A program made the position numbers and the translations under genes. Positions 2,174 to 56,086 of a stretch of 64,000 nucleotides of DNA are shown here, piece after piece; position 1 is the first letter of the stretch; each line of letters starts with the position of its first letter. This DNA comes from Candidatus Terraquivivens ruidianensis. GTDB taxonomy: Archaea; Thermoproteota; Nitrososphaeria_A; Caldarchaeales; Wolframiiraptoraceae. The DNA lies in the NCBI GenBank assembly GCA_023267885.1, contig JALNLB010000003.1, forward strand, positions 12,792-76,791, read 5' to 3'. The notes under the pieces are model-generated. The model did not search any database and was not told where the DNA came from. It worked only from the letters and a program-made list of their open reading frames with translations.

Positions 2174-2284
2174 GGGATTACGGCGTAAACCTCAGTTTTA
2201 AAACGTTTTCTATCCACGACTCTTCTGTTGACTTTAAAGTAAAAATTGCAGCTTTAGGCGATGCTTGTCATGTCGATATGCTAG

Positions 2285-2635
2285 TTAAGAGCCGCCGAGC
2301 AATAACTTCTGCTGCTTCTTGAATTCTTCTAAGACTATTTTTTTGACGAGGTCGCAGGCCTCAACGACTTTTGGGTTCGCTATCCTATAGTAGACGTTTG
2401 GCCCTTCTCGCCTTGTCTCGACTATACCTACATCACGGAGAATTGCGAGATGCTGAGAGAGATTTGCTTGAGCGACTCCGACTTCTTCGATCAATTCATT
2501 CACCGTCTTTTCACCTAATTTCAGCAGGTCAAGTACGTGAAGCCTCGTCGGATGGGCCATGGCTTTACAAAACTTTGCATGGACCTCGTAGAATGTTTTA
2601 CTGGCTTTGACCTCCGTATTCTGTTTCTGCCTCAT
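2285..2635 (-). CDS. ArsR/SmtB-family HTH transcriptional regulator with two Cys (possibly persulfide-sensing, SqrR/BigR-like)
   Basis: HTH region PTRLHVLDLL...TVNELIEEVGVAQANLSQHLAILRDVGIV. Cys residues sit at about 23 and about 93. It directly precedes the SQR-tusA-dsrE genes on the same strand. Confidence 0.8.
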   Translation of the reverse strand: MRQKQNTEVKASKTFYEVHAKFCKAMAHPTRLHVLDLLKLGEKTVNELIEEVGVAQANLSQHLAILRDVGIVETRREGPNVYYRIANPKVVEACDLVKKIVLEEFKKQQKLLLGGS

Positions 2636-3766
2636 TTAAGCCCATCCTTTCAAGACTGCACTCCAATATAGCTTTCCAACCAGCATCTTCGCATAATACC
2701 ACTTTCTGCTCAGCTTCGTCGGCTTTGGCGGGTTTTCGTAGTCGAAGACCATTGTTATGCCCTTCTTGAACCCTGCGTCGCAGAAGCATCGAACTTTACC
2801 ATCATAACGCCTTATTGTATCACTTCCCTTTATATCTGCCGCGATGTTTTCTGCCACGACCTTTGCTTCATAGTGGGCCGTGGCGCCCGCTTTCGATATC
2901 GGTATATCTGTAGCATCTCCGACAACATGAATATCATCGTAACCCTTTGCTCTGAGTGTATGCTTATCTGTCGGTATCCAGCCTCCCCTATTGCCCAGGC
3001 CCGAATCTTCTATTACTTTAGCGCCCCTATGGGGTGGGACAATTATCAGCAGGTCGTACTTTAGCGATTCACCCTCCAGCGAATGAACGAGCCTCTTCTC
3101 CGGCTCTATACGCTCTACGTTGAAAAGCTGTGTGTATTGGATGTCCTTTTTCTCCATAATCTCTTGGACTAGGGGTGCTACGGACTCCAGAGGGAAAACC
3201 CTCGGTAGAGGCGATAGGTAGTGGATCTCTATTTTGTGTCTAGAACCACGTTTCGTGAAGTAGTAATCGAGCTGACAGGCAGACTCCGCCGGTGCAGGTG
3301 GACATTTGTAGGGTATGCCGCCTATGCCAATCACAACCCTGCCGCCCGGAAAGCTATCGAGCGCCCTCCTCAGCCTTACTGAGGCATCAAGGTCGTAAAA
3401 GTGATGCGCGGCCTCGAAACCCGGCAACTCTTCAGGACACAACCTAGCACCTGTGGCCACGACCAAGTAATCGTAGCCCAAGATTCTGCCGGACTTTAAA
3501 CGGACTTTTCTATCGTCGGGCTTTATTAACGTAGCCTCGTCGATGATTAAGTCAACACGCCTATCGAGTAAGCGCCGTTCATCTCTGATCAAGTTCTCTG
3601 GCTTCTCGTCACCGAAGGCGACATAGATAAAACCCGGCTGGTAAACGTGTTTTCCTGTTGCGTCGACAAGCGTTATATTCACTTCGCTCGGAGAGACTTT
3701 TCTTGCTAGGACATTCGCTACTATCGTGCCACCTACTCCGCCGCCGAGTATCAGGACTTTCTTCAT
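2636..3766 (-). CDS. FAD-dependent pyridine nucleotide-disulfide oxidoreductase, sulfide:quinone oxidoreductase-like
   Basis: N-terminal GGGVGG Rossmann motif, 376 aa, and membership of the SQR/NDH-II family. Its neighbours are TusA and DsrE. Confidence 0.65.
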   Translation of the reverse strand: MKKVLILGGGVGGTIVANVLARKVSPSEVNITLVDATGKHVYQPGFIYVAFGDEKPENLIRDERRLLDRRVDLIIDEATLIKPDDRKVRLKSGRILGYDYLVVATGARLCPEELPGFEAAHHFYDLDASVRLRRALDSFPGGRVVIGIGGIPYKCPPAPAESACQLDYYFTKRGSRHKIEIHYLSPLPRVFPLESVAPLVQEIMEKKDIQYTQLFNVERIEPEKRLVHSLEGESLKYDLLIIVPPHRGAKVIEDSGLGNRGGWIPTDKHTLRAKGYDDIHVVGDATDIPISKAGATAHYEAKVVAENIAADIKGSDTIRRYDGKVRCFCDAGFKKGITMVFDYENPPKPTKLSRKWYYAKMLVGKLYWSAVLKGWA

Positions 3767-3768
3767 GG

Positions 3769-4011
3769 CTAACGTTTCTTCCGAACGATAAACTCTGCAT
3801 AGCCGTTACGGTCGAAAACCCCGATCAGCTCATGGCCAGCCTTCTCGACCCAGAGAGGTATATCACGCTTTGAGCCGCTGTCGGAAGAGTAAACACTGAC
3901 AACCTCGCCGACCTTAGCCTCCCTGATTGCCTTAATCAGCTCCATCAGAGGTCCTGGGCAGAAACTTCCTCTAGCATCGATTACCCTATCGACCTTAACG
4001 TCTTGGCTCAT
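3769..4011 (-). CDS. tusA: TusA-like sulfurtransferase
   Basis: 80 aa with the CPGP (CPxP) motif in ...[11 protein letters not shown]... Confidence 0.85.
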
Positions 4012-4029
4012 GCCGTTTCATCCCTCATC

Positions 4030-4458
4030 TTATATGAACAACGTTATCTTAGCATCCTTTGCTATATCGATGAACTCACCAACAGCTACGACATCGTCAA
4101 CGAAGTCCGCAAGGTCTTCTTTCTTCATCCCCATAAGGTCAAAGGTCATGGCGCATGCGTGCACCCTTACTTTTCCCAGCTCCTTTGCTTTCTTAAGTAT
4201 CTCGTACCATGGCTGGACGTTCTTCTGCTTCATCAGCTGCATCATGGCCTGGCCCATATCCTCAAAGTCCTTCGAGATTTTCATATTGGTGGTCAGCATA
4301 TCTTTCCTTAGCGCGTTTAAACCCCAGAAAGTCGCAAAGATGTCAACTTCCATACCCATCGCGACGGCACCGGAGGCGATTATGCTGACTGGGTAGAGCT
4401 TATCGACAGTTCCCGAGAAGAGCACTATGGCAAGTTTCTCTACCATCCAACTCACCAC
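4030..4458 (-). CDS. dsrE: DsrE/DsrF-like sulfur relay protein
   Basis: About 140 aa with the DsrE fold pattern IVLFSG...HACAMT. It lies in an operon with tusA. Confidence 0.75.
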   Translation of the reverse strand: MVSWMVEKLAIVLFSGTVDKLYPVSIIASGAVAMGMEVDIFATFWGLNALRKDMLTTNMKISKDFEDMGQAMMQLMKQKNVQPWYEILKKAKELGKVRVHACAMTFDLMGMKKEDLADFVDDVVAVGEFIDIAKDAKITLFI

Positions 4459-4529
4459 CTTAGTATATTCGAATATTATTATAATATATAAACCTTAACT
4501 CACTACATTGGGTTAAGGTATAACCCTGT

Positions 4530-4892
4530 TTATTGGAATACGTATCCGCAGAATGGACAGATGGTTGAACCCTGCTCGACTAGATGGTGGCAGCTCGGAC
4601 AGTGAAACGAAACAACTCTGTGTGGTTTTTCTGCAGGCTGCTTGACCTCCGGGAGTGGGTAGGGTATGGCTATCAACGTCTCTGTATGTATAACGTTTGG
4701 ATGCTTCTCGACAACCTCATATATGGTTTTTGATAGCTCCTCGAAATCTTTTGCGGCTAACACTAGGACAGCATCGTACCTGCCGAACACACTATGGGCC
4801 ATCTTAACGCCCTTGATCTTCCTAGAGGCTATGAGCTCATGCGATGTACCAGGAACAGTCCTGACCAAGACGAACGCTATAACGGGCATCAT
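4530..4892 (-). CDS. Stand-alone Lrp/AsnC ligand-binding (RAM) domain protein with a C-terminal Zn-ribbon
   Basis: RAM-like core (VLVRTVPGT...VFGRYDAVLVL) plus CPSCHH...CPFCG at the C-terminus. Confidence 0.6.
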   Translation of the reverse strand: MMPVIAFVLVRTVPGTSHELIASRKIKGVKMAHSVFGRYDAVLVLAAKDFEELSKTIYEVVEKHPNVIHTETLIAIPYPLPEVKQPAEKPHRVVSFHCPSCHHLVEQGSTICPFCGYVFQ

Positions 4893-5143
4893 TTCTCACT
4901 TTTGGAGCCAGTAAGCACTATAGCAGTCTCTGTATGAATCACGTTAGGAACCTTCTCGATTACCTTATAAACAACCTCACTCAATTTTTCTAAGCTCGGT
5001 ACTTCAACCACGACTATTGCATCAAACCTTCCAAAGACCGAGTCAGCTTGGACAACACCTTCGAGGCTGCCAACCTCTTTTATGTATTTCAGAACCTCCA
5101 TGGACGTGCCCGGCTTTGTCGTGAGCATCACATAAGCCCTCAA
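4889..5143 (-). CDS. Stand-alone Lrp/AsnC ligand-binding (RAM) domain protein
   Basis: 84 aa paralog of the downstream gene (VMLTTKPGT...VFGRFDAIVVV). It overlaps the next gene by 4 nt. Confidence 0.6.
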   Translation of the reverse strand: MRAYVMLTTKPGTSMEVLKYIKEVGSLEGVVQADSVFGRFDAIVVVEVPSLEKLSEVVYKVIEKVPNVIHTETAIVLTGSKSEK

Positions 5144-41404: not shown

Positions 41405-42211
41405 CTAGATGCTTATCCCGAAAATACTTAAGATGAATTTTAGAGAAACGTATAGGAAGACGATTCCGAAGACCAGTTTTATATAAGAGGCTGGAACCTT
41501 TGGTACAAGTCTTGAACCTATCTGCGCTCCTATTGCCGTTCCAGCTCCAAGGGATAGCGCAGCAACCACATCTACCAATCCTTGATATATCTTGAACGCT
41601 CCCGAAATGACCGCCATGCTTATGAATGATGCTAAAGACGTTCCTACAGCTATCTTAACAGGTGATCCGAGAAGATATATCATCGAAGGAACTAAAGCGT
41701 AGCCACCCCCTAGACCGACGATACCCGTTAGCACCCCTATGATGAGCCCTATTGATGATTTAGCTAAAGCACTTCCAGGAACGAGGTTTCCAGTTTTTGC
41801 CTCCACTCTTCTCTTAATACCTCCCTCGTATATCATTCTTAGAGAAACGTATAGAAAGGCTACTCCTAAGATAATTTTTAGTAATGGTAGTTGTCCCACT
41901 AGATACTGGAAAGTAATCGAACCGAGTAACGCACCTACTGCGCCTGACATGGCCACGATTATTGTAGTTCTATAATCCACGTTTCTTATCTTTATATGGG
42001 CTATCGAGCCTGATGTTGCCGTGATTATAACGGCAGTAATAGTCGTCCCAATGGCTACAGGCAAGTTATAGTTGAAGAGGAAGTAAAGGGCTGGAAGCAT
42101 CACAACACATCCACCAGTTCCCAAGAATCCCCCAAGAATCCCTGCAAGCAAACCAAAGATTATTAAAACAATTACGAATATTATCTCCATAGATGCCCAG
42201 ATATTGTCCAA
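41405..42211 (-). CDS. TauE/SafE-family sulfite/anion exporter (DUF81)
   Basis: 268 aa with two internal repeats of GxxGG membrane motifs. Confidence 0.8.
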   Translation of the reverse strand: MDNIWASMEIIFVIVLIIFGLLAGILGGFLGTGGCVVMLPALYFLFNYNLPVAIGTTITAVIITATSGSIAHIKIRNVDYRTTIIVAMSGAVGALLGSITFQYLVGQLPLLKIILGVAFLYVSLRMIYEGGIKRRVEAKTGNLVPGSALAKSSIGLIIGVLTGIVGLGGGYALVPSMIYLLGSPVKIAVGTSLASFISMAVISGAFKIYQGLVDVVAALSLGAGTAIGAQIGSRLVPKVPASYIKLVFGIVFLYVSLKFILSIFGISI

Positions 42212-42575
42212 TATAGCTATATTTAAATATAGCTATATTTTACTTTTGAATATGCATCTAAAAATGAGAAACCTAAACAGGTTTAAAGCTAAAATCTTCA
42301 GAACTCTCTCAGACCCTGCGAGGCTTAAAATTCTGGAATGCTTGCGTAACGGAGAAAAGTGCGTCTGCGAAATCGTCTCATATGTTGGGATAGCCCAGCC
42401 GATGGTTTCTAGGCATTTATCCATTCTAAAGAAGTGCGGGCTCATTATGGACAGGAGAGAGGGAAACAAGCGGTTCTATTCTGTGACCAATCCAGCCATA
42501 TTCAAGGTAATCGACATGATTGACAAAAGCTTTGCGGATATTCTTACAAAACACGTTATTAAGCAAATAGTTTAA
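42204..42575 (+). CDS. ArsR-family HTH regulator
   Basis: LSDPARLKILECL...CVCEIVSYVGIAQPMVSRHLSILKKCGL. Confidence 0.85.
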   Translation: MSNIAIFKYSYILLLNMHLKMRNLNRFKAKIFRTLSDPARLKILECLRNGEKCVCEIVSYVGIAQPMVSRHLSILKKCGLIMDRREGNKRFYSVTNPAIFKVIDMIDKSFADILTKHVIKQIV

Positions 42576-43205: not shown

Positions 43206-44009
43206 ATGGATTCCTTCCTTTTGATGTTGAACGAGGTTCTAACGGATGCGAGTAAGGCGTTGTCTAGCAAGTCAAGGTACGACATACTGACCGCTCTGTC
43301 AAAAGGAAAGATGACGATACTGCAGATTGCAAAGGAAACTGGCCTAAGCCAGATGACCGTTAGGTTTCACCTTAAAACGCTGATTGAGGCAGGTCTAGTA
43401 AGGAGAAGTAACGCGTGTAGGACTGGAGGAGCTGGAAGACCGGGTACGTTGTACGAGCTCTCTAAATCCTTAACGATGATGTCGTTCCCGCCTAGGCAGT
43501 ACATGCTTTTGTCATACGTGCTTCTGTCGGCTCTTAAAGAATCTTTGGGAGAGGTACAAGCAAGAGCCGTCATGTACCGATTTGGTAAGAAATTAGGCCA
43601 GAGCTTCAGGATGGATATCGAAAGGGTCTTCATGAATGATAACGACTATACCGCAGAAAAATTCGCCAACCATCTGATTAACGCATGTTTTAAAAAGATT
43701 GGAATAATCGCCGAGCCTGCCAAGGTCGATGAGAAGGAATTGGTCTTAAAGTTCTACAACTGTCCTTTCGAGGAAGTGGCGCGGAATTATGCAGGCTTAA
43801 TCTGCGATGGGTTTGACAACGGCTTTTACGACGGTTTGTACATGAATATGCACAACAGGAGCTTTATGTGGAAAAAAACAAAGAGCATAGTAAAAGGAGA
43901 TGAATGCTGTGAGCATATAATATTCCTAACTTCGGGAGATAACAAAAAGCCATTCTACGAAAACAATATAAATAATCAGAAGAGCGTCAAATTCCAGGTG
44001 CCCCGGTAG
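43206..44009 (+). CDS. HTH (ArsR/MarR-like) regulator fused to a V4R-like sensory domain
   Basis: N-terminal wHTH (MTILQIAKETGLSQMTVRFHLKTL). C-terminal Cys-containing V4R-like domain (CPFEE...CDGF...CCEH). Confidence 0.5.
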   Translation: MDSFLLMLNEVLTDASKALSSKSRYDILTALSKGKMTILQIAKETGLSQMTVRFHLKTLIEAGLVRRSNACRTGGAGRPGTLYELSKSLTMMSFPPRQYMLLSYVLLSALKESLGEVQARAVMYRFGKKLGQSFRMDIERVFMNDNDYTAEKFANHLINACFKKIGIIAEPAKVDEKELVLKFYNCPFEEVARNYAGLICDGFDNGFYDGLYMNMHNRSFMWKKTKSIVKGDECCEHIIFLTSGDNKKPFYENNINNQKSVKFQVPR

Positions 44010-48665: not shown

Positions 48666-48703
48666 AGCAGGTACAAGCATTCGGTCGCAAAATTGCGAGC
48701 GTG

Positions 48704-51700
48704 ATGAGAAAAATGGATAGACGTGCGAAGATAACCGCGCTGGCGCTTTTGGTAGTGATGGTTGCGGCAGTTATACTTCCTGCCGCGATCGTTCAGGTTA
48801 CAACAGCGCAGGCATACCATGAGGCATGGTTCAAGATAGTCACTTCTGCATGGAAAGGAACCCATAGATGGGAGTTCACAGGTTTTCCAGGTACGGGCTC
48901 TTTGGGCACTACAGGCTATTGGGATGAATATTATCCGCCAGTCTTCCCGATAGCAGACCAGTGGGGTATAATACCTGCAAGGTACAACCTAACGAAGATA
49001 GGTTCTGACGGTATCCCGACGTTGGAGCCGAACGTCGAGGTCGCAGTTTACTACCCGACAGGTCTTGAACCAAACCCCGTTGCATATTCTACGTTCACGC
49101 CGAACGGTACTGGCTTCGTAAAGGTTACATGGCCTAAAGACTGGCAAAACGTCACTATAGCAGTAAAGGCAAAGAGCTGGTACGGAGAGCCGATAAGGAC
49201 ATCTTCCAACAGGCTATACGAAGGAATTATACTGTTTATGATTAAGATAAATGCTACTAGGTACGAGTACGTTCGCAACGGCATAACTTCTGGTACTCTG
49301 TGGAGACCTAACGCGACCTTCATGTACAACGGTAGAGTAGGCATTCATCCATTCCTAGGAATGTTTGACTTTAGATACAGCGGGCCGGTTGTGTTCTGGT
49401 CGAAGGTAAGAGCCGACTCGGCCATTACCGACCTAGGTCCGGGTGCGTTCGCAGCATTCCACGCCAACGCTTCATACGCATTCCTTGCCAACTGCTCAAT
49501 TCTGTGGAAGAAGTTCCACACGCACACTTGGTATGGCATAAGGGACAACCTAAGCTATGCCCAGGTAAGGGTATACGACCTGAACTACACTGCCAACTCC
49601 CTTGGAGGAGTATCGGCACTGAGCGAGGCAACGCTGGTCGGAGCTGGAGTAACGAAGGCTCTCTACAGAGGTGATTCAAAGCTCAGGGATGCGGCTGACG
49701 GTCAGACTCCTTGGATACCCATACCCACCCAGACATTCCACCTGGGACTGAGGCTACCGTTCGCCCTCAGACATCCAACTGGAGATTTTGGCTTCGGCAA
49801 CGCCAGCTTCCCAGCAGGCCAGGCTAACACTGGCCCCCATCTGAACGCTACCGTCAGAGTTTGGTGGGAGACCGTCCTAGTAAACCAGACGAGGTACAGC
49901 TTCTGGGACAACCATACCATTTCTGAGAATCCAGACAGCATTATGGACACTTACGTAGACGCACCAGGTCCTCTAAACTTCACGCGTGGCGGATGGTTCA
50001 AGACACAAGATTACCATGGTATAGCGCCAAACCATAACAGCTCGTTAAACCACCTGAACTGTACGGTGTTCTACGCCAAGTTCCAGGCGAACGATACTGA
50101 CACGAGGGCAAAACACAGGACCTTCGGCGACGCTCTGGTCGATGCTCAAGTGCTAATAGTGTTGACGAAGCAGAAGGCAGGCGATGCAGGGCCAGTAGTT
50201 TACTTTGATAAGGATGAGATTGGTCTGACGAATGCTTCCAACACAGCGCTCCCAGGCCGTCATCCAGGCTATACAGACACCGTAAAGGGCTCCTCCATGG
50301 TGGGAGCTGAGGCCAACTTTACTGCTTTAGGTTACATGAGGTTCCCGAACTCATCGGTATTCTACTATGGAGGATACAAGATTGGAACTACACAGAAGGA
50401 TGTTAACCACCCATGGGTACTATACGACTACCCAGTAGTCTTCCACCCGGAGGATGCTGTGAACAGAGCAGAGGCTCTGGAGAGGCCGTGCACGAAGATA
50501 GTAAACATCAAGGAGCTGAACACGATAAGCCTTGACGATGACAAAGACAAGTGGGGCACTTTCAAGGGCATATTGGTACAAGTTAAGTGGAAGGGAGGTC
50601 CTGCTGGCGTATACGGAGGAGAATTCGTAACTGTAAACTCGACGCATATAACTAACCCATACGCCATAGCCCTCCGCAACGCATCATGGATTGTGCCTAC
50701 GAACCCAATACTGGTCAGGGCGACCCACGATGCTCTCAGCAGGTTTGATACGCCCGCCATCATGAGAGACCAGTACGGTATCAGAGGCCCGGTCTTCCCC
50801 AGACTCAGCAGGGGTGTTCTCACGCTTGGCGGCATATACCTTCTCAACTGTACTGTTTACGACCTTATGCTCCAGATAGTCGACAAGATGCTATCACCGC
50901 TCGAGCCTGCTGACACGAAGGTAGTCCTATACAGGCCGAACGGTCCTCCGGTAGAGTTCCAGGGCCTGCCTACAGAGCATACTGTACTGCTATCCGATGG
51001 AACACCAGTCTACAACGTCGTATTCTATGACTGGATATCGGCTAACGGAACGTTGTTGCTATTCCAGCTACCAGGCGATACGGGCGCTTATGGCATCAGG
51101 GTCTACTACCAAGGCGTTCTCGTCTACGATGAGCTGTTCCTGATACCCAAGCTGATAAAGACAGAGAACCTTACATTGGTAACGAACGTCTATAAGGTTC
51201 TGATAAAGGTGACGGATGCGCACGACGAGGGCTTGGCTTACACACCCGTATGGTACATACACCCAACTTACGGAGAAGTATTGGTCAACACTGCAGATGA
51301 CGGTAAGATAGATTTAGGAAAGACACCAATACCTGTCGGCGGTGGGGTAACGCTACCCACGCTGAAGTTCACTGGTGTTTACTGGAAGGGAGTTAAGGTA
51401 AAGTTCCTTGTGAAGGATGCGGTAAAGTATCCAGACGGCACGACGGCTGACTCAGAGCCTGACGGTTCCGTGTTCGTAGATACATCTAAGAGCGCATACA
51501 CGCCGATAATCGTTAGGGCAAGGATAACTGACCTAATATTCTACACATGGGACTTCCAGAAGGTTGAGAAGATAAACAATGTCAACATAACGATGTCTTG
51601 GTGGGGATACAACATAACGACTGGCAAGATTATAAAGTTCATAGAGACGATGGACCCAGGCGAAAGTAAGGACGTCGACCCGACAAAGCCAAGGCCGCCT

Positions 51701-54700
51701 ATCGGCGTACCGTGGGATTTGGCATTTGACCTGCAGAATTACAACACCTCAAGGATAGTCGCCCAGTTCTTCAGATACAAGATTACTTACTACATGGGCG
51801 AGGCCAAGGTGGTATTCCACCAGATGCCTGCTCTTGATGAGGAGGTCAACAGGCCTTGCATAAACGTAACGACGTCTACTATGACATGGAGATGGACCGG
51901 CTCGAACCATGAGAGGAAGCATTTCTCTGAGCTAATAGGTTGGGCCGGAGGCGCGGGTACATTCGCCGGAAACGCAACGCCTGGCTCTAACCTGTGGGAC
52001 AGTGTTACGACAGCTGAAGATGAGGCACATGGAAGGGTCGTGCTAAGGGTTATACCCAAGGCATTCAACCCTGACGTTTACTACGAAGACATAATCAAGG
52101 CTCTGAAGTTCGAGGAGCTTACGTTCTGCCAGAGGATAGCCATCGACCTTCCGCTCTGGGCTATGGGCTTCGACGTCGTTGCGATAAACGGTGAGAGATG
52201 GCTTGGCGGCGCAGAGTTCACGATAGTCAACGACGTAAACAGGACGATGATAACGCTAGTGACGAAGAGCGATGCGCCGATAACGCTAAGGTCGATAGTG
52301 AACAAGACGAACCCATTACTATCTAGGATATGGTGGAACAGCTCATCCCACTGGACGACTTACAACTTAGGCCCAAGCGGTAGGGCTAGGATACACGTAC
52401 CCGTCGCAGGCCAGGCGATGGTCGGCGCGATTGGAAGGGGATACAGGACAGAGTCCCTGACCTTCAAGACCGACATGGGTGTTACAGTGAGGAACTTCAC
52501 TTGGTACAGGTACGGCGGCGTATGGGCCGCTAACATAGGTCCGTGGCCAGACCGGGTCTCTGCTAACTACACGTTCTACGTGACGCCGAACGTAGCGCTG
52601 AAGGATGCATGGGCCACGAAGAAGACGATGGTTAGGGTCTGGGTCTGGAGCTTTGCAGAAGGCACGATGCCAGCAAAATACGACATTCCGTACATCTACG
52701 ATAAGCAGCTACTCAGGGTTCCGCTGCCCGTTGGCTTCATAACGCTGGAGCTGACTGACCAGGGTGGCGCTAGACCACTCAAGTACGCTTTTGTAAACAT
52801 AACAGCCCACATCAACGCTACTGTAGATGATGTGTGGCCGAGGTTCGTCGTCTACCCAGGGCCTGACGGAAAGGCACAGTGGGCAGGAAAGGTCGATTCT
52901 GAAGGAAAGGCAGAGATAATCGCACCGACTGCAGGATACCTGAACTACACGAGCAAGAAGTTTGGATATGAAGGTGATCCAGTAAGGTTCAAGACCTTCA
53001 ACATAACGGTATACTGGTACCTGAACAGCAGCGTCGTCTACGAGGCTTACTTCAACCTGACGAAGATGGGATGGAAGGTAGACAAGGTAGCGGTTGCAGA
53101 CGTCGTTCTGCACCACACGATATGCTCAGACCTTAACAGGGTAGTCAAGGGACTATACGCAGACGTGGCATGGAGGAACGTGACGGCGCCTGCCAATTTC
53201 GTGCACCCAGGCATACTGACTGCCGACGACGAGAAGTGGACGTGGACGCTGACGGAGATAGACGAGACGAAGGGGAAGGCAGCATGGACAACTGGAACAG
53301 TCGAGCTTAACCTAGTACCGACGGCTATGAAGTTCAAGGTCTACGACTGGTTCCTACAGAGGGAAGTCACGTGGAACGTAAGCCATCTATGGAGGGTCGC
53401 AGCGTGGTACACCGACCTGAAGAAAGGACCCGTACAGTTCGAAGGCGAGAGCTACAAGCAGCTGATGTTCGGTAGCGGCACTGATAAGTCACCAGTCAAC
53501 TCTGCTGTCTACATAATAATAGGCGCAGCACCATTCGACCACACGACGTACAGATGGACGAGAGCGAGCACTGATGTGCTAAGCGGCTGGTGGCCGGCAA
53601 CTACTGGTAGTGATGCGGACGGAAGTGGAGCACGATTTGTTGGTAAGATAGGCAGGTATCATCCTGTTACTTCGATAGGACTCATCGATTACTACGGTAC
53701 CGTCAAGACCAAAGAGGTCGTCGAGGCAACAAGGACAGTCAAGCTAGTGGCGCTTAAGCTGAACGCAACAGACTTGGCAGTAAAGGTAGCATGGCAGAGA
53801 GGAGAGAACGAGACGGCCACTTACATAACTGGTCCGCTGGTAGGCTGGAAGGTAAAGCTGACCTACGTACCGCCATACGAGTACCTATCTGATGCTGAAA
53901 GGGATGCTCTATGGACTGCATGGAGGAGGACGCTGGAGGTAACGACAGATGACGAGGGATTTGCATGGTTCAGGAGTGGTGACACACCGGAGACGGTCAT
54001 ATGGAACGCAAGCAGGATAAAGGCAGGAATGACCAGGGAGGCATCATGGCTTGTCGTCAGCCCGCCTGCTTACATGCTGAACGAGAAGGACCCGTACTGG
54101 CGTGACAACGTCGTAAAGCCTGGCGCTGAGGCACACGGCCTTAGCGTCTTCGAGGGAACGCAGGACCCAGCTGCCATGGTCGGCGTAGACCTTACACCGG
54201 AGGGATACTTCTCATGGCTGCCAGACCCATCGCTATGGGTAAGTGATGAGTGGTTTAGCACTATCTACTCCTTGTATGGCTATCCAGGTATGTGGACTTT
54301 CTATAACGAGTGGGGTGCAGGACTATGGTTGCCTTCACTCTTTGGCGAGGGATACAGTGGAAGCTCCGGATGGGCAAGGATAGCAGGCGCATGGTACGCA
54401 AGGATAAACGTATGGCCTAACAACCCAGCGACATCCCAGCACGTGCCTTACACGCCAGTGTTCCAGTACATGGAAGTAACGGCACAGATAAGGGACTTCA
54501 ACGGAAGGCCGCTGCCAGGCGCATTCTTCTGGATGATAGACTCGGTAACTGGCAAGACGGCAGGCTGGTCCTATGCTGGTAAGGACGGCCTCACTGAAAA
54601 AGTATACCTGAGGAAGCCTGAGTTCACCCTGCTGCTCAGAGTCCACTACCTAGGCAGGGATGCTGAAGGCCATCCAGCATGGCCGTTCAACGCCTTCGGA

Positions 54701-56086
54701 AAGTGGCCGGCTAGCTACTACAGCGATGCAGACGAGACAGAGCCAGGACCTGGAATATTCGGAGAGCTAGCAAAGAGGGTAAAGGTAACGACATTAGCCC
54801 ACGAGTATCATGGTGTTTGGAGGGTCAGGCCAGGCGTCCACTGGGATATAACGGCGAGGATATTCGACATAAGGGTAAGGCATTACTACGAGACTGCTAA
54901 GCCGATAGAGGTTGATGCAACGTTCTACAGGGAGTTCCCAGATAAGCTAGGTGGAACGGTTGAGTTCAAGGCTAAGGAGATCATAGAGGTCAAGAGGCTG
55001 AACAGGGGAACCTACGAGGAGATAGCCAAGTGGCTCGGAGTTGCAGTAGGAAGGAAGAGCTTCGACCTTAGCGCTGCCAACGTAGGAACGGTCGCCGCCG
55101 AGCTTGAGTGTGCCGTCGGTGACATAAGCGTGACCGCCAAGGACATAACTGGAAGGGTGCTGAGTGACGCCATCGCAAAGTTCGAGGGCGTCGAGCAGAA
55201 GCTGACGATACCGCCGGAGATACTTGAGAAGTACGGTATTGCGAGCGAGGAGGATGCTAAGACGTTGAAGGCAGTAGGCGCAGTGTTCGTGACGAGGTTG
55301 CCGATACCGACGAACATAAGGTACAGCCTAGACCTCTCATGGACCTCGCCTGACTTCGGAACGGATGCAAAGGTCTCAGTGGTCGACACGGTCAGCGGAC
55401 TTAACGCCAGGAGGGAGATAACGCTGCCTGTTGGCGTCGTTACGATCAACGTCGTGGACGGCAAGGGAAGGGCCATAGCAGGAGCCGAGGTGTCGCTAGG
55501 ACCAGTAAAGGCTAAGACAGATGCAGCAGGAAAGGCGGTGTTCGAGAGCGTACCGCTCGAGAGGGAAGGCAGGGGCATAGCCTACCAGATAACCGTCACA
55601 CGCGAGGGTGAGGTGGTCTACAGGGAGACCGAGACCTTCTCGGTAGCTAAGACCTCGATAACGGTCATAGGAGAGCTGTATGACCTTAGTGTGCTGGTGA
55701 AGGGTGCCGCAGGCCAAGGCCTGCCGTTCGCAACGGTAACGTTGAAGAGGGCAGGCGTGGTGGTGGGACACTTCACGACCGACGAGGGAGGTGCAGTGAC
55801 GATACCGAAGCTAGTGGCCGCAGACTACGAGGTAGAGGTTGCGTACAAGGGATACACAGGGACGGCCACCATCTCGAAGGCAGACCTGACGGCTGGCAAG
55901 AGGGCTGAGGTAACGCTGCCGCCATACGTAGAGATAGCCGGCATGCCTCTGACGTTCGCCACGTTCCTAGCCTTGATAATCGGCATAGTCCTGCTGGTCA
56001 TAGTAGTAGTCGTCATAGCATTCGAGTACGTGCGCTGGCGCGGTAGAAGGGTGGGAATATTCCCGCCTCCGCCACCAAAGAAGTAG
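48704..56086 (+). CDS. Giant (2460 aa) secreted, sequon-rich surface protein with a C-terminal TM anchor. It is a candidate S-layer or stalk glycoprotein.
   Basis: Signal peptide, more than 40 N-x-S/T sequons, two C-terminal CarboxypepD_reg/Cna-B-like beta-sandwich repeats, a TM helix and a RRVGIFPPPPPKK tail. Confidence 0.7.
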   Translation: MRKMDRRAKITALALLVVMVAAVILPAAIVQVTTAQAYHEAWFKIVTSAWKGTHRWEFTGFPGTGSLGTTGYWDEYYPPVFPIADQWGIIPARYNLTKIGSDGIPTLEPNVEVAVYYPTGLEPNPVAYSTFTPNGTGFVKVTWPKDWQNVTIAVKAKSWYGEPIRTSSNRLYEGIILFMIKINATRYEYVRNGITSGTLWRPNATFMYNGRVGIHPFLGMFDFRYSGPVVFWSKVRADSAITDLGPGAFAAFHANASYAFLANCSILWKKFHTHTWYGIRDNLSYAQVRVYDLNYTANSLGGVSALSEATLVGAGVTKALYRGDSKLRDAADGQTPWIPIPTQTFHLGLRLPFALRHPTGDFGFGNASFPAGQANTGPHLNATVRVWWETVLVNQTRYSFWDNHTISENPDSIMDTYVDAPGPLNFTRGGWFKTQDYHGIAPNHNSSLNHLNCTVFYAKFQANDTDTRAKHRTFGDALVDAQVLIVLTKQKAGDAGPVVYFDKDEIGLTNASNTALPGRHPGYTDTVKGSSMVGAEANFTALGYMRFPNSSVFYYGGYKIGTTQKDVNHPWVLYDYPVVFHPEDAVNRAEALERPCTKIVNIKELNTISLDDDKDKWGTFKGILVQVKWKGGPAGVYGGEFVTVNSTHITNPYAIALRNASWIVPTNPILVRATHDALSRFDTPAIMRDQYGIRGPVFPRLSRGVLTLGGIYLLNCTVYDLMLQIVDKMLSPLEPADTKVVLYRPNGPPVEFQGLPTEHTVLLSDGTPVYNVVFYDWISANGTLLLFQLPGDTGAYGIRVYYQGVLVYDELFLIPKLIKTENLTLVTNVYKVLIKVTDAHDEGLAYTPVWYIHPTYGEVLVNTADDGKIDLGKTPIPVGGGVTLPTLKFTGVYWKGVKVKFLVKDAVKYPDGTTADSEPDGSVFVDTSKSAYTPIIVRARITDLIFYTWDFQKVEKINNVNITMSWWGYNITTGKIIKFIETMDPGESKDVDPTKPRPPIGVPWDLAFDLQNYNTSRIVAQFFRYKITYYMGEAKVVFHQMPALDEEVNRPCINVTTSTMTWRWTGSNHERKHFSELIGWAGGAGTFAGNATPGSNLWDSVTTAEDEAHGRVVLRVIPKAFNPDVYYEDIIKALKFEELTFCQRIAIDLPLWAMGFDVVAINGERWLGGAEFTIVNDVNRTMITLVTKSDAPITLRSIVNKTNPLLSRIWWNSSSHWTTYNLGPSGRARIHVPVAGQAMVGAIGRGYRTESLTFKTDMGVTVRNFTWYRYGGVWAANIGPWPDRVSANYTFYVTPNVALKDAWATKKTMVRVWVWSFAEGTMPAKYDIPYIYDKQLLRVPLPVGFITLELTDQGGARPLKYAFVNITAHINATVDDVWPRFVVYPGPDGKAQWAGKVDSEGKAEIIAPTAGYLNYTSKKFGYEGDPVRFKTFNITVYWYLNSSVVYEAYFNLTKMGWKVDKVAVADVVLHHTICSDLNRVVKGLYADVAWRNVTAPANFVHPGILTADDEKWTWTLTEIDETKGKAAWTTGTVELNLVPTAMKFKVYDWFLQREVTWNVSHLWRVAAWYTDLKKGPVQFEGESYKQLMFGSGTDKSPVNSAVYIIIGAAPFDHTTYRWTRASTDVLSGWWPATTGSDADGSGARFVGKIGRYHPVTSIGLIDYYGTVKTKEVVEATRTVKLVALKLNATDLAVKVAWQRGENETATYITGPLVGWKVKLTYVPPYEYLSDAERDALWTAWRRTLEVTTDDEGFAWFRSGDTPETVIWNASRIKAGMTREASWLVVSPPAYMLNEKDPYWRDNVVKPGAEAHGLSVFEGTQDPAAMVGVDLTPEGYFSWLPDPSLWVSDEWFSTIYSLYGYPGMWTFYNEWGAGLWLPSLFGEGYSGSSGWARIAGAWYARINVWPNNPATSQHVPYTPVFQYMEVTAQIRDFNGRPLPGAFFWMIDSVTGKTAGWSYAGKDGLTEKVYLRKPEFTLLLRVHYLGRDAEGHPAWPFNAFGKWPASYYSDADETEPGPGIFGELAKRVKVTTLAHEYHGVWRVRPGVHWDITARIFDIRVRHYYETAKPIEVDATFYREFPDKLGGTVEFKAKEIIEVKRLNRGTYEEIAKWLGVAVGRKSFDLSAANVGTVAAELECAVGDISVTAKDITGRVLSDAIAKFEGVEQKLTIPPEILEKYGIASEEDAKTLKAVGAVFVTRLPIPTNIRYSLDLSWTSPDFGTDAKVSVVDTVSGLNARREITLPVGVVTINVVDGKGRAIAGAEVSLGPVKAKTDAAGKAVFESVPLEREGRGIAYQITVTREGEVVYRETETFSVAKTSITVIGELYDLSVLVKGAAGQGLPFATVTLKRAGVVVGHFTTDEGGAVTIPKLVAADYEVEVAYKGYTGTATISKADLTAGKRAEVTLPPYVEIAGMPLTFATFLALIIGIVLLVIVVVVIAFEYVRWRGRRVGIFPPPPPKK

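Follow-up and report, generated by a model that had tools for sequence, protein, structure and literature searches.

A two-cysteine ArsR-family regulator distinct from SqrR and BigR in an archaeal dsrE-tusA-sqr operon: a probable thiol-based sulfur switch

Does a two-cysteine ArsR-family regulator encoded in an archaeon beside genes for a sulfide:quinone oxidoreductase (SQR), TusA, and a DsrE-family protein belong to the known persulfide sensors, or does it sense by a site of its own? The locus lies at positions 2285-4458 of a 64,000-nucleotide stretch of Candidatus Terraquivivens ruidianensis DNA (the window), and a preliminary description had presented it as an operon headed by an SqrR/BigR-like regulator in a crenarchaeon. 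Our analysis favors, with moderate confidence, an autoregulated sulfide-oxidation and sulfur-relay operon that is switched by a thiol-based ArsR sensor, probably of sulfane sulfur. The cysteines of this sensor do not correspond to those of SqrR and BigR, and the protein belongs with its relatives to a separate, widespread, and unstudied ArsR clade in archaea and bacteria. The host is not a classical crenarchaeon; the identical ArsR protein is recorded at NCBI from a metagenome-assembled genome labeled “Nitrososphaerota archaeon.”

The region holds four tightly packed co-directional open reading frames (ORFs), and family matches, together with the CPGP and HACAMT motifs, bear out their assignment as ArsR, SQR-like, TusA, and DsrE proteins. 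All four lie on the minus strand. The order of transcription is therefore dsrE2B-like, tusA, type III-like sqr, and arsR, so that arsR is the last gene of the operon and does not head or directly precede the structural genes, as had been thought. The gaps in this order are 18, 2, and 0 nt, and the sqr stop codon abuts the arsR start codon (TAAATG).

The regulator matched HTH_5 (PF01022) with 55.3 bits (cut-off 22) and NF033788 with 92 bits (cut-off 55). Its AlphaFold2 (AF2) model, with a mean predicted local distance difference test (pLDDT) score of 91, has the order α1-α2-α3-α4-β1-β2-α5, exactly the ArsR/SmtB elements, and Foldseek aligned it to ArsR structures with template modeling (TM) scores of 0.65-0.88; the nearest solved structures were Rv0081, NolR, SqrR, and HlyU. 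The protein contains exactly two cysteines, which had been placed at about 23 and about 93 and are at 23 and 94, 71 residues apart. In the model, α1 spans residues 2-26 with Cys23 near its end, and α5 spans residues 88-112 with Cys94 in its second turn.

The described ArsR-family persulfide sensors (SqrR, BigR, HlyU, YgaV, and Hyphomicrobium SoxR/sHdrR) constitute cluster 4 of the ArsR sequence similarity network (SSN), are bacterial, and use an α2-α5 cysteine pair (C41/C107 in SqrR, C42/C108 in BigR). There are reasons to ask whether the window regulator is a true member of this group that uses the homologous α2-α5 dithiol: it shares the ArsR/SmtB winged-helix fold and ∼34-36% identity with these sensors, BigR (3e-14) and SqrR (4e-13) are its second and third best PDB sequence matches, and it likewise has two cysteines, one of them on α5, at a similar spacing (71 versus 66 residues). 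Both kinds of regulator are encoded beside sqr, sulfurtransferase, and sulfur-oxidation genes, and the window protein too is presumed to be a repressor acting on a palindromic operator. However, an alignment to these proteins, set beforehand as the test of equivalence, refuted the homology of the sites. In ungapped phmmer alignments and two MAFFT alignments, BigR C42 and SqrR C41 fell on query Asp36 and BigR C108 on Leu102, whereas query Cys23 and Cys94 fell on BigR Leu29 and Val100 (with BigR numbered by a sequence that reproduces the aligned BigR chain fragment). The window cysteines thus lie 13 residues earlier, on α1, and 8 residues earlier on α5. No cysteine was present at position 36 or 102 in any of 91 loci, and the BigR equivalog model NF040642 gave the regulator 66.9 bits, below its cut-off of 155. 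Rv0081, a protein that does not sense persulfide, was the better match (3e-17, 65.7 bits). The recognition helices also differ (QANLSQHL in the window regulator, QAAVSQQL in SqrR), as do the operators (AATATT-CG-AATATT in the window clade, against the ATTC-N8-GAAT sqr box of SqrR), and the window clade includes archaea, whereas cluster 4 is described for bacteria only. Because both cysteine positions mismatch and the equivalog score is below its cut-off, the regulator, judged by its sequence, is not an SqrR/BigR-type persulfide sensor, and we consider that assignment very improbable.

We then examined how widely the two cysteines are kept. We scored the best 150 matches of an exhaustive phmmer search over 1.84 billion 50%-identity representatives, with no selection based on cysteine. 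Position 23 was Cys in 135 of these 150 closest representatives, position 94 in 93, and both positions in 85; when position 94 was not Cys, it was mostly Phe or Tyr. At the SqrR/BigR positions 36 and 102, Cys was outside the six commonest residues, which at position 36 were D, N, H, Y, E, and S. The cysteines were also conserved in the orthologues, and most of 86 word-indexed homologues carried the motifs HAxxCK (α1) and xACxL (α5) at a spacing of exactly 71 residues. By this pattern, the clade is characterized by the near-invariant Cys of α1, to which the Cys of α5 is an optional partner. There was no statistical coupling between Cys at 23 and Cys at 94 among the 150 representatives (85 observed versus ∼84 expected), a test that is uninformative because Cys23 is nearly invariant.

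The neighborhood of the regulator was compared in 13 loci located through exact look-up of the protein and in 80 loci from the genomes of GTDB species representatives (identified here by L numbers). A dsrE-tusA-sqr-arsR block recurred between different flanking genes at 44-87% ArsR identity, in Nitrososphaeria-type archaea (Nitrososphaeria, Nitrososphaerales, and Nitrosopumilales), Methanomassiliicoccales, and Conexivisphaerales. With arsR in last position, it was found in L001-L004, L006, L013-15, L019, L020, L025-28, L037, L041, L052, L067, L083, and L093; besides the window, at least 19 archaeal loci encode the regulator together with sqr, tusA, and dsrE in one operon. The gene order is arsR-dsrE-sqr in Chloroflexota, and members with one cysteine in Actinomycetota and Eubacteriales have the order arsR-dsrE(-tusA). 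Linkage was counted in 89 related loci (L003 being left out as a duplicate of L002), accepting strong same-strand matches only. A same-strand SQR, DsrE, or TusA gene lay within 3 kb in 35 of 58 two-Cys loci and in 14 of 31 one-Cys loci, and a strong SQR match was found in 34 of the 58 versus 1 of the 31 (Fisher p = 6e-8, kinship ignored). These counts are lower bounds because many contigs are incomplete and the hidden Markov model (HMM) missed DsrE proteins of the PF02635 type. Members with one cysteine adjoin DsrE(-TusA) only. Among the loci outside these counts, several have a PF02635 DsrE, thioredoxin, or OsmC gene directly after arsR. The recurrence of these arrangements supports the view that the regulator is kept together with the sulfur genes as one functional unit.

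The same survey bears on what such a regulator might sense. It could be a general sensor of thiol oxidation (disulfide stress, peroxide, or electrophiles) in which Cys23 is oxidized as in the 1-Cys and 2-Cys OhrR proteins or RexT, the sulfur genes being part of a wider thiol-stress regulon. The regulator gene directly precedes thioredoxin in L024, L042, and L086, OsmC in L090 and L010, and a CoA-binding gene in L048 and L008, and members from Hadarchaeota precede thioredoxin or face a DsrE gene, while a member from Nanoarchaeia precedes OsmC. The thioredoxin and OsmC neighbors make this the most serious rival explanation, and the division of the clade into 1-Cys and 2-Cys forms resembles that of OhrR, while RexT, in ArsR cluster 6, senses H2O2 through Cys. 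However, the dominant neighbors, DsrE, TusA, and SQR, all handle sulfane sulfur, two-Cys members go with SQR, the polysulfide-making enzyme, and many of the hosts are anaerobes (Methanomassiliicoccales, Hadarchaeota, and Anaerolineales). We regard a general oxidation sensor as unlikely, and a sensor of sulfane sulfur as the better explanation.

A palindromic operator had been anticipated upstream of the operon, between 4459 and 4529. One is present there, and it is not the CCTTAAC repeat that had been singled out. Read on the minus strand, the putative operator is TAATATTCGAATATAC, with the perfect 12-bp palindrome ATATTCGAATAT at its core, and it agrees with the clade consensus AATATTCGAATATT at 13 of 14 positions; the count matrix of the motif gives AATATT-CG-AATATT. 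It was the single match in the 64-kb window, and no second match that would indicate a wider regulon was found there, the TauE/ArsR pair described below included. In distant archaeal loci, TAGAATATTCGAATATTCTA and close variants recur directly after a TATA-like box, upstream of dsrE. The exact core ATATTCGAATAT also stands 20-60 nt upstream of arsR in arsR-first loci, bacterial and archaeal, that had not been used to derive the motif. When whole loci were scored with the 20-mer, 72 of 88 had their best match no more than 130 nt ahead of the operon's first gene, against 1.8 of 88 expected under uniform placement. That null overstated the enrichment and was discarded: a composition-matched control lifts the expectation from 1.8 to ∼13 of 88. 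Forty composition-matched shuffled palindromes gave a mean of 13 of 88 and a maximum of 65, and the real motif, at 72, exceeded all 40; the bias of intergenic regions toward AT thus explains only part of the operator signal. In the 84% relative L093, the operator is identical and the TATA box likewise unchanged, and the sequence further upstream diverges. The block GTTTATATATTAT.ATAATATTCGAATATACTAA is kept in L093 and deleted in L001.

The flagged repeat was itself examined as an operator and rejected. Described as a 7-bp inverted repeat at about 4486..4511, it actually has 8-bp arms, ACCTTAAC at 4492-4499 and GTTAAGGT at 4512-4519, separated by a 12-nt spacer. It is conserved in neither the 84% (L093) nor the 87% (L001) relative, and as RNA it folds no better than shuffled sequences (z = -0.83).

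Several findings weigh against a sulfane-sulfur switch. The closest relative, L001 (87%), has lost the TATA box and half of the operator through a deletion of ∼36 nt, seen when L001 4089-4140 is compared with window 4447-4529 and L093 692-771; regulation would then be dispensable or rewired there, and the L001 operon may be deregulated or driven by read-through. The statistic that associates the second Cys with SQR ignores phylogeny, and some members, such as L011, have no informative neighbors. A bridge between two cysteines cannot operate throughout the clade, one-third of which has no second Cys. Furthermore, other ArsR proteins have buried hydrophobic residues at positions 23 and 94 (SmtB Phe40 and Tyr111 in our own alignment), and the cysteines could therefore be partly structural.

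Taken to its end, the last point would make both residues structural core cysteines, with a repressor that is constitutive or gated by another ligand, or with an arsR that does not regulate the operon at all. The hydrophobic character of both positions, the uncoupled occurrence of the two cysteines, and the incomplete operator of L001 agree with this. On the other hand, Cys is kept in 90% of representatives at no more than 50% identity, an unusual degree for a site that is merely hydrophobic, the operator is conserved ahead of the operon across domains, and the order of the genes is kept, arsR abutting sqr translationally. This alternative strikes us as rather improbable. A metal or metalloid sensor has also to be considered, in which the α1/α5 dimer interface holds a thiolate site or bridging cluster made up of Cys23 and Cys94, possibly from both subunits, and the linkage to sulfur genes is secondary. 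ArsR/SmtB proteins are classically metal sensors with α5 sites, the NCBIfam name is “metalloregulator,” H19 and D95 lie near the cysteines, and the L009 regulator, a further point against sulfur sensing, is encoded among metal-handling genes (P-type ATPase, Zip, and SOD). Against this, neither the window operon nor those of the archaeal relatives contain or adjoin a metal transporter gene, position 19 is His or Gln and position 95 may be D, E, N, A, or K, one-Cys members would offer just two thiolates per dimer, and the window has a separate ArsR of the canonical CVC type. A metal site seems improbable, if slightly less so than cysteines of purely structural role, and both are less likely than a general sensor of thiol oxidation.

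By their conserved residues, the SQR, TusA, and DsrE proteins encoded by the operon all look functional. The SQR-like protein matched human SQOR in the PDB with E = 4e-42, and Cys155 (in YKCPPAP) and Cys327 align with the cysteines of human SQOR “pvkCagap” and “ytsCpl”; among neighboring homologues, Cys155 is conserved in 37 of 38 and Cys327 in 36 of 38. It scored 75.6 bits with Pyr_redox_2 and 31.4 bits with FCSD_central. The best NCBIfam match was type III SQR, NF049943, at 369.7 bits against a cut-off of 525, this being an “exception” model for a selenoprotein subtype. An example of a type III SQR is that of Caldivirga maquilingensis. Like type III SQR and human SQOR, the window protein has the FAD-binding GGGxGG motif and both redox cysteines, aligned with those of human SQOR. 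It differs in being shorter: it ends at residue 376, which the alignment pairs with residue 394 in a human SQOR chain of 418 residues, and from there the human protein continues into its C-terminal membrane helices.

TusA matched PF01206 with 78.8 bits (cut-off 28.6), and its Cys18, in CPGP, was invariant in 32 of 32 neighboring homologues. The DsrE protein matched PF13686 (DrsE_2) with 108.6 bits, its active-site Cys98 (HACAMT) was invariant in 35 of 35 homologues, and its best PDB match was 2qs7 (E = 7e-40), which the literature names as Sulfolobus solfataricus DsrE2B. The NCBIfam DsrE2 model gave 70 bits against a cut-off of 210, and the protein is therefore not that equivalog. In the DsrE3A/DsrE2B-TusA pairs of Sulfolobales (Metallosphaera cuprina and S. 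solfataricus), a DsrE-family protein and TusA are likewise encoded side by side in archaea. Those pairs adjoin sHdr genes, whereas the window pair shares an operon with SQR and a dedicated ArsR and has no adjacent sHdr genes.

A separate observation concerns the DsrE proteins of Chloroflexota relatives. In L046 (6313-6700) and L080 (3530-3910), and also in L017, L022, L034, L050, L051, L054, and L058, a PF02635 dsrE gene follows a two-Cys arsR, and in these genes the active-site position itself is taken by an in-frame stop (VAT*GTC), with the frame running on for ∼40 codons. Because the stop falls at this position and the frame remains open beyond it, these are candidate selenocysteine DsrE proteins. 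For the neighboring SQR family, the best NCBIfam model is likewise that of a selenoprotein subtype.

Taken together, gene order, the positions and conservation of the cysteines, linkage to sulfur genes, and a conserved operator come from comparison; repression, the inducer, and the cysteine chemistry we infer. In the mechanism that we propose, the families of the enzymes suggest that SQR would oxidize sulfide to enzyme-bound sulfane sulfur and that TusA and the DsrE2B-like protein would accept this sulfur as protein persulfides and pass it onward. The ArsR dimer would bind the palindrome AATATTCGAATAT(A) and repress its own operon; because the TATA box and the dsrE start flank the operator, the bound dimer would block assembly of the transcription machinery. 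Sulfane sulfur from SQR, or carried by TusA or DsrE, would modify Cys23, and in two-Cys members Cys94 would resolve this modification to a di- or polysulfide link. Such a link may perturb the α1/α5 dimer core and lower the affinity for DNA, by which the operon would be derepressed. Of the reactive-sulfur switch previously suggested, the homologous site has thus fallen, and an analogous thiol switch stands as plausible and as the best reading.

A broader proposal, which we advance more tentatively, is that the ArsR fold would have given rise independently to a second sulfane-sulfur switch, built on a near-invariant nucleophilic α1 Cys with an optional resolving Cys on α5 that was kept or gained where the operon has SQR. 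The clade would span archaea and bacteria with one operator, AATATTCGAATATT, in both, and the window protein would be among the first identifiable archaeal transcription sensors of reactive sulfur. Described ArsR clusters that respond to reactive species number two, the SqrR type and the RexT type, both bacterial, and several large clusters have inducers that are unknown. Our literature searches found no description of an archaeal sulfane-sulfur sensor or persulfide-sensing ArsR, nothing relevant under TsoR, and no match to the operator string. The best match of the window regulator in both sequence and structure (65.7 bits; TM 0.75-0.86) is Mycobacterium tuberculosis Rv0081, of SSN cluster 3, whose inducer is unknown. 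Rv0081 has Phe at the position of query Cys23 and no Cys in α5, and it is tied to the hypoxia response, whereas the window regulator is tied to sulfur genes. OhrR, of the MarR family, exists in 1-Cys and 2-Cys forms and is induced by organic peroxides; the window clade is divided in a similar way, some members having the presumed sensing Cys alone and others a resolving Cys as well, although the fold family is unrelated and the inducer different.

The features of the locus are collected in Table 1. The start of dsrE is most likely the ATG at 4446 rather than the GTG at 4458, because a Shine-Dalgarno-like sequence, GGTGGTGA, precedes it and the orthologues have 138 residues; GGTGA is kept at the same distance from the dsrE start in L001, L002, L015, and L093. 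The segment between operator and repeat is the putative TATA region of the promoter, and a T5 run beyond arsR is a possible archaeal terminator.

Table 1. Features of the dsrE-tusA-sqr-arsR locus and its flanks, in window coordinates
Feature	Position	Strand	Basis or remark
DsrE2B-like sulfurtransferase, 138 residues, first gene	4030..4446 (ORF to 4458)	-	PF13686, 2qs7, conserved Cys98
TusA sulfur carrier, 80 residues	3769..4011	-	PF01206; Cys18 in CPGP
SQR-like flavoprotein, 376 residues, nearest type III SQR	2636..3766	-	SQOR match; Cys155, Cys327
ArsR/SmtB-family repressor (predicted), 116 residues, last gene	2285..2635	-	HTH_5, NF033788
Cys23 codon; Cys94 codon (arsR)	2567-2569; 2354-2356	-	sequence
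Putative ArsR operator	4463..4478	.	motif match; 12-bp perfect palindrome 4465-4476
TATA region (inferred)	4478..4492	-	TTTATATA at 4485-4492, TTATAATA at 4478-4485; directly upstream of operator
Shine-Dalgarno-like GGTGGTGA ahead of dsrE ATG 4446	4452..4459	-	sequence
T5 run ∼40 nt past arsR stop	2241..2245	-	possible archaeal terminator; sequence only
Inverted repeat ACCTTAAC-N12-GTTAAGGT, upstream of TATA box	4492..4519	.	probably plays no part in the switch

Directly upstream of the operon and co-directional with it, at 4530-5143, are genes for two small proteins that consist of the Lrp/AsnC ligand-binding domain only, one of them with a C-terminal zinc ribbon; the pair is kept beside the operon only in the closest relatives, L001 and L093. 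Elsewhere in the window, a TauE/SafE gene with its own ArsR is present at 41405..42575, as had been reported: TauE/SafE occupies 41405-42211 on the minus strand and is divergent from the second ArsR, probably 42252-42575. This ArsR has the classical α3 CVC motif and an α2 Cys and is therefore not a member of the clade with C23 and C94. A different 12-bp palindrome, ATATAGCTATAT, occurs twice in the intergenic region, at 42211-42222 and 42227-42238. A third ArsR-family gene within 2 kb of this pair, at 43206-44009, encodes an ArsR-type HTH fused to an ATC_hydrolase-like domain. The 2461-residue ORF at 48701-56086, whose sole match is C-terminal and CarboxypepD_reg/prealbumin-like, is probably a giant surface protein.

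The locus is best read as a probable ArsR thiol switch on a sulfide-oxidation and sulfur-relay operon, with a sensing site that is differently placed and apparently independently evolved, a defined operator, and relatives in archaea and bacteria alike. Because the regulator, its operator sequence, and its target genes are all predicted, the hypothesis is directly testable in vitro. If it is true, a separate clade with relocated cysteines, tied to SQR, DsrE, and TusA in archaea, Chloroflexota, and Actinomycetota, would mean that sulfur sensing arose more than once on the ArsR scaffold, and it would provide a regulatory marker for sulfur-cycle genomics. The arrangement also suggests TusA and DsrE2B as protein acceptors of the SQR product in archaea that lack glutathione.

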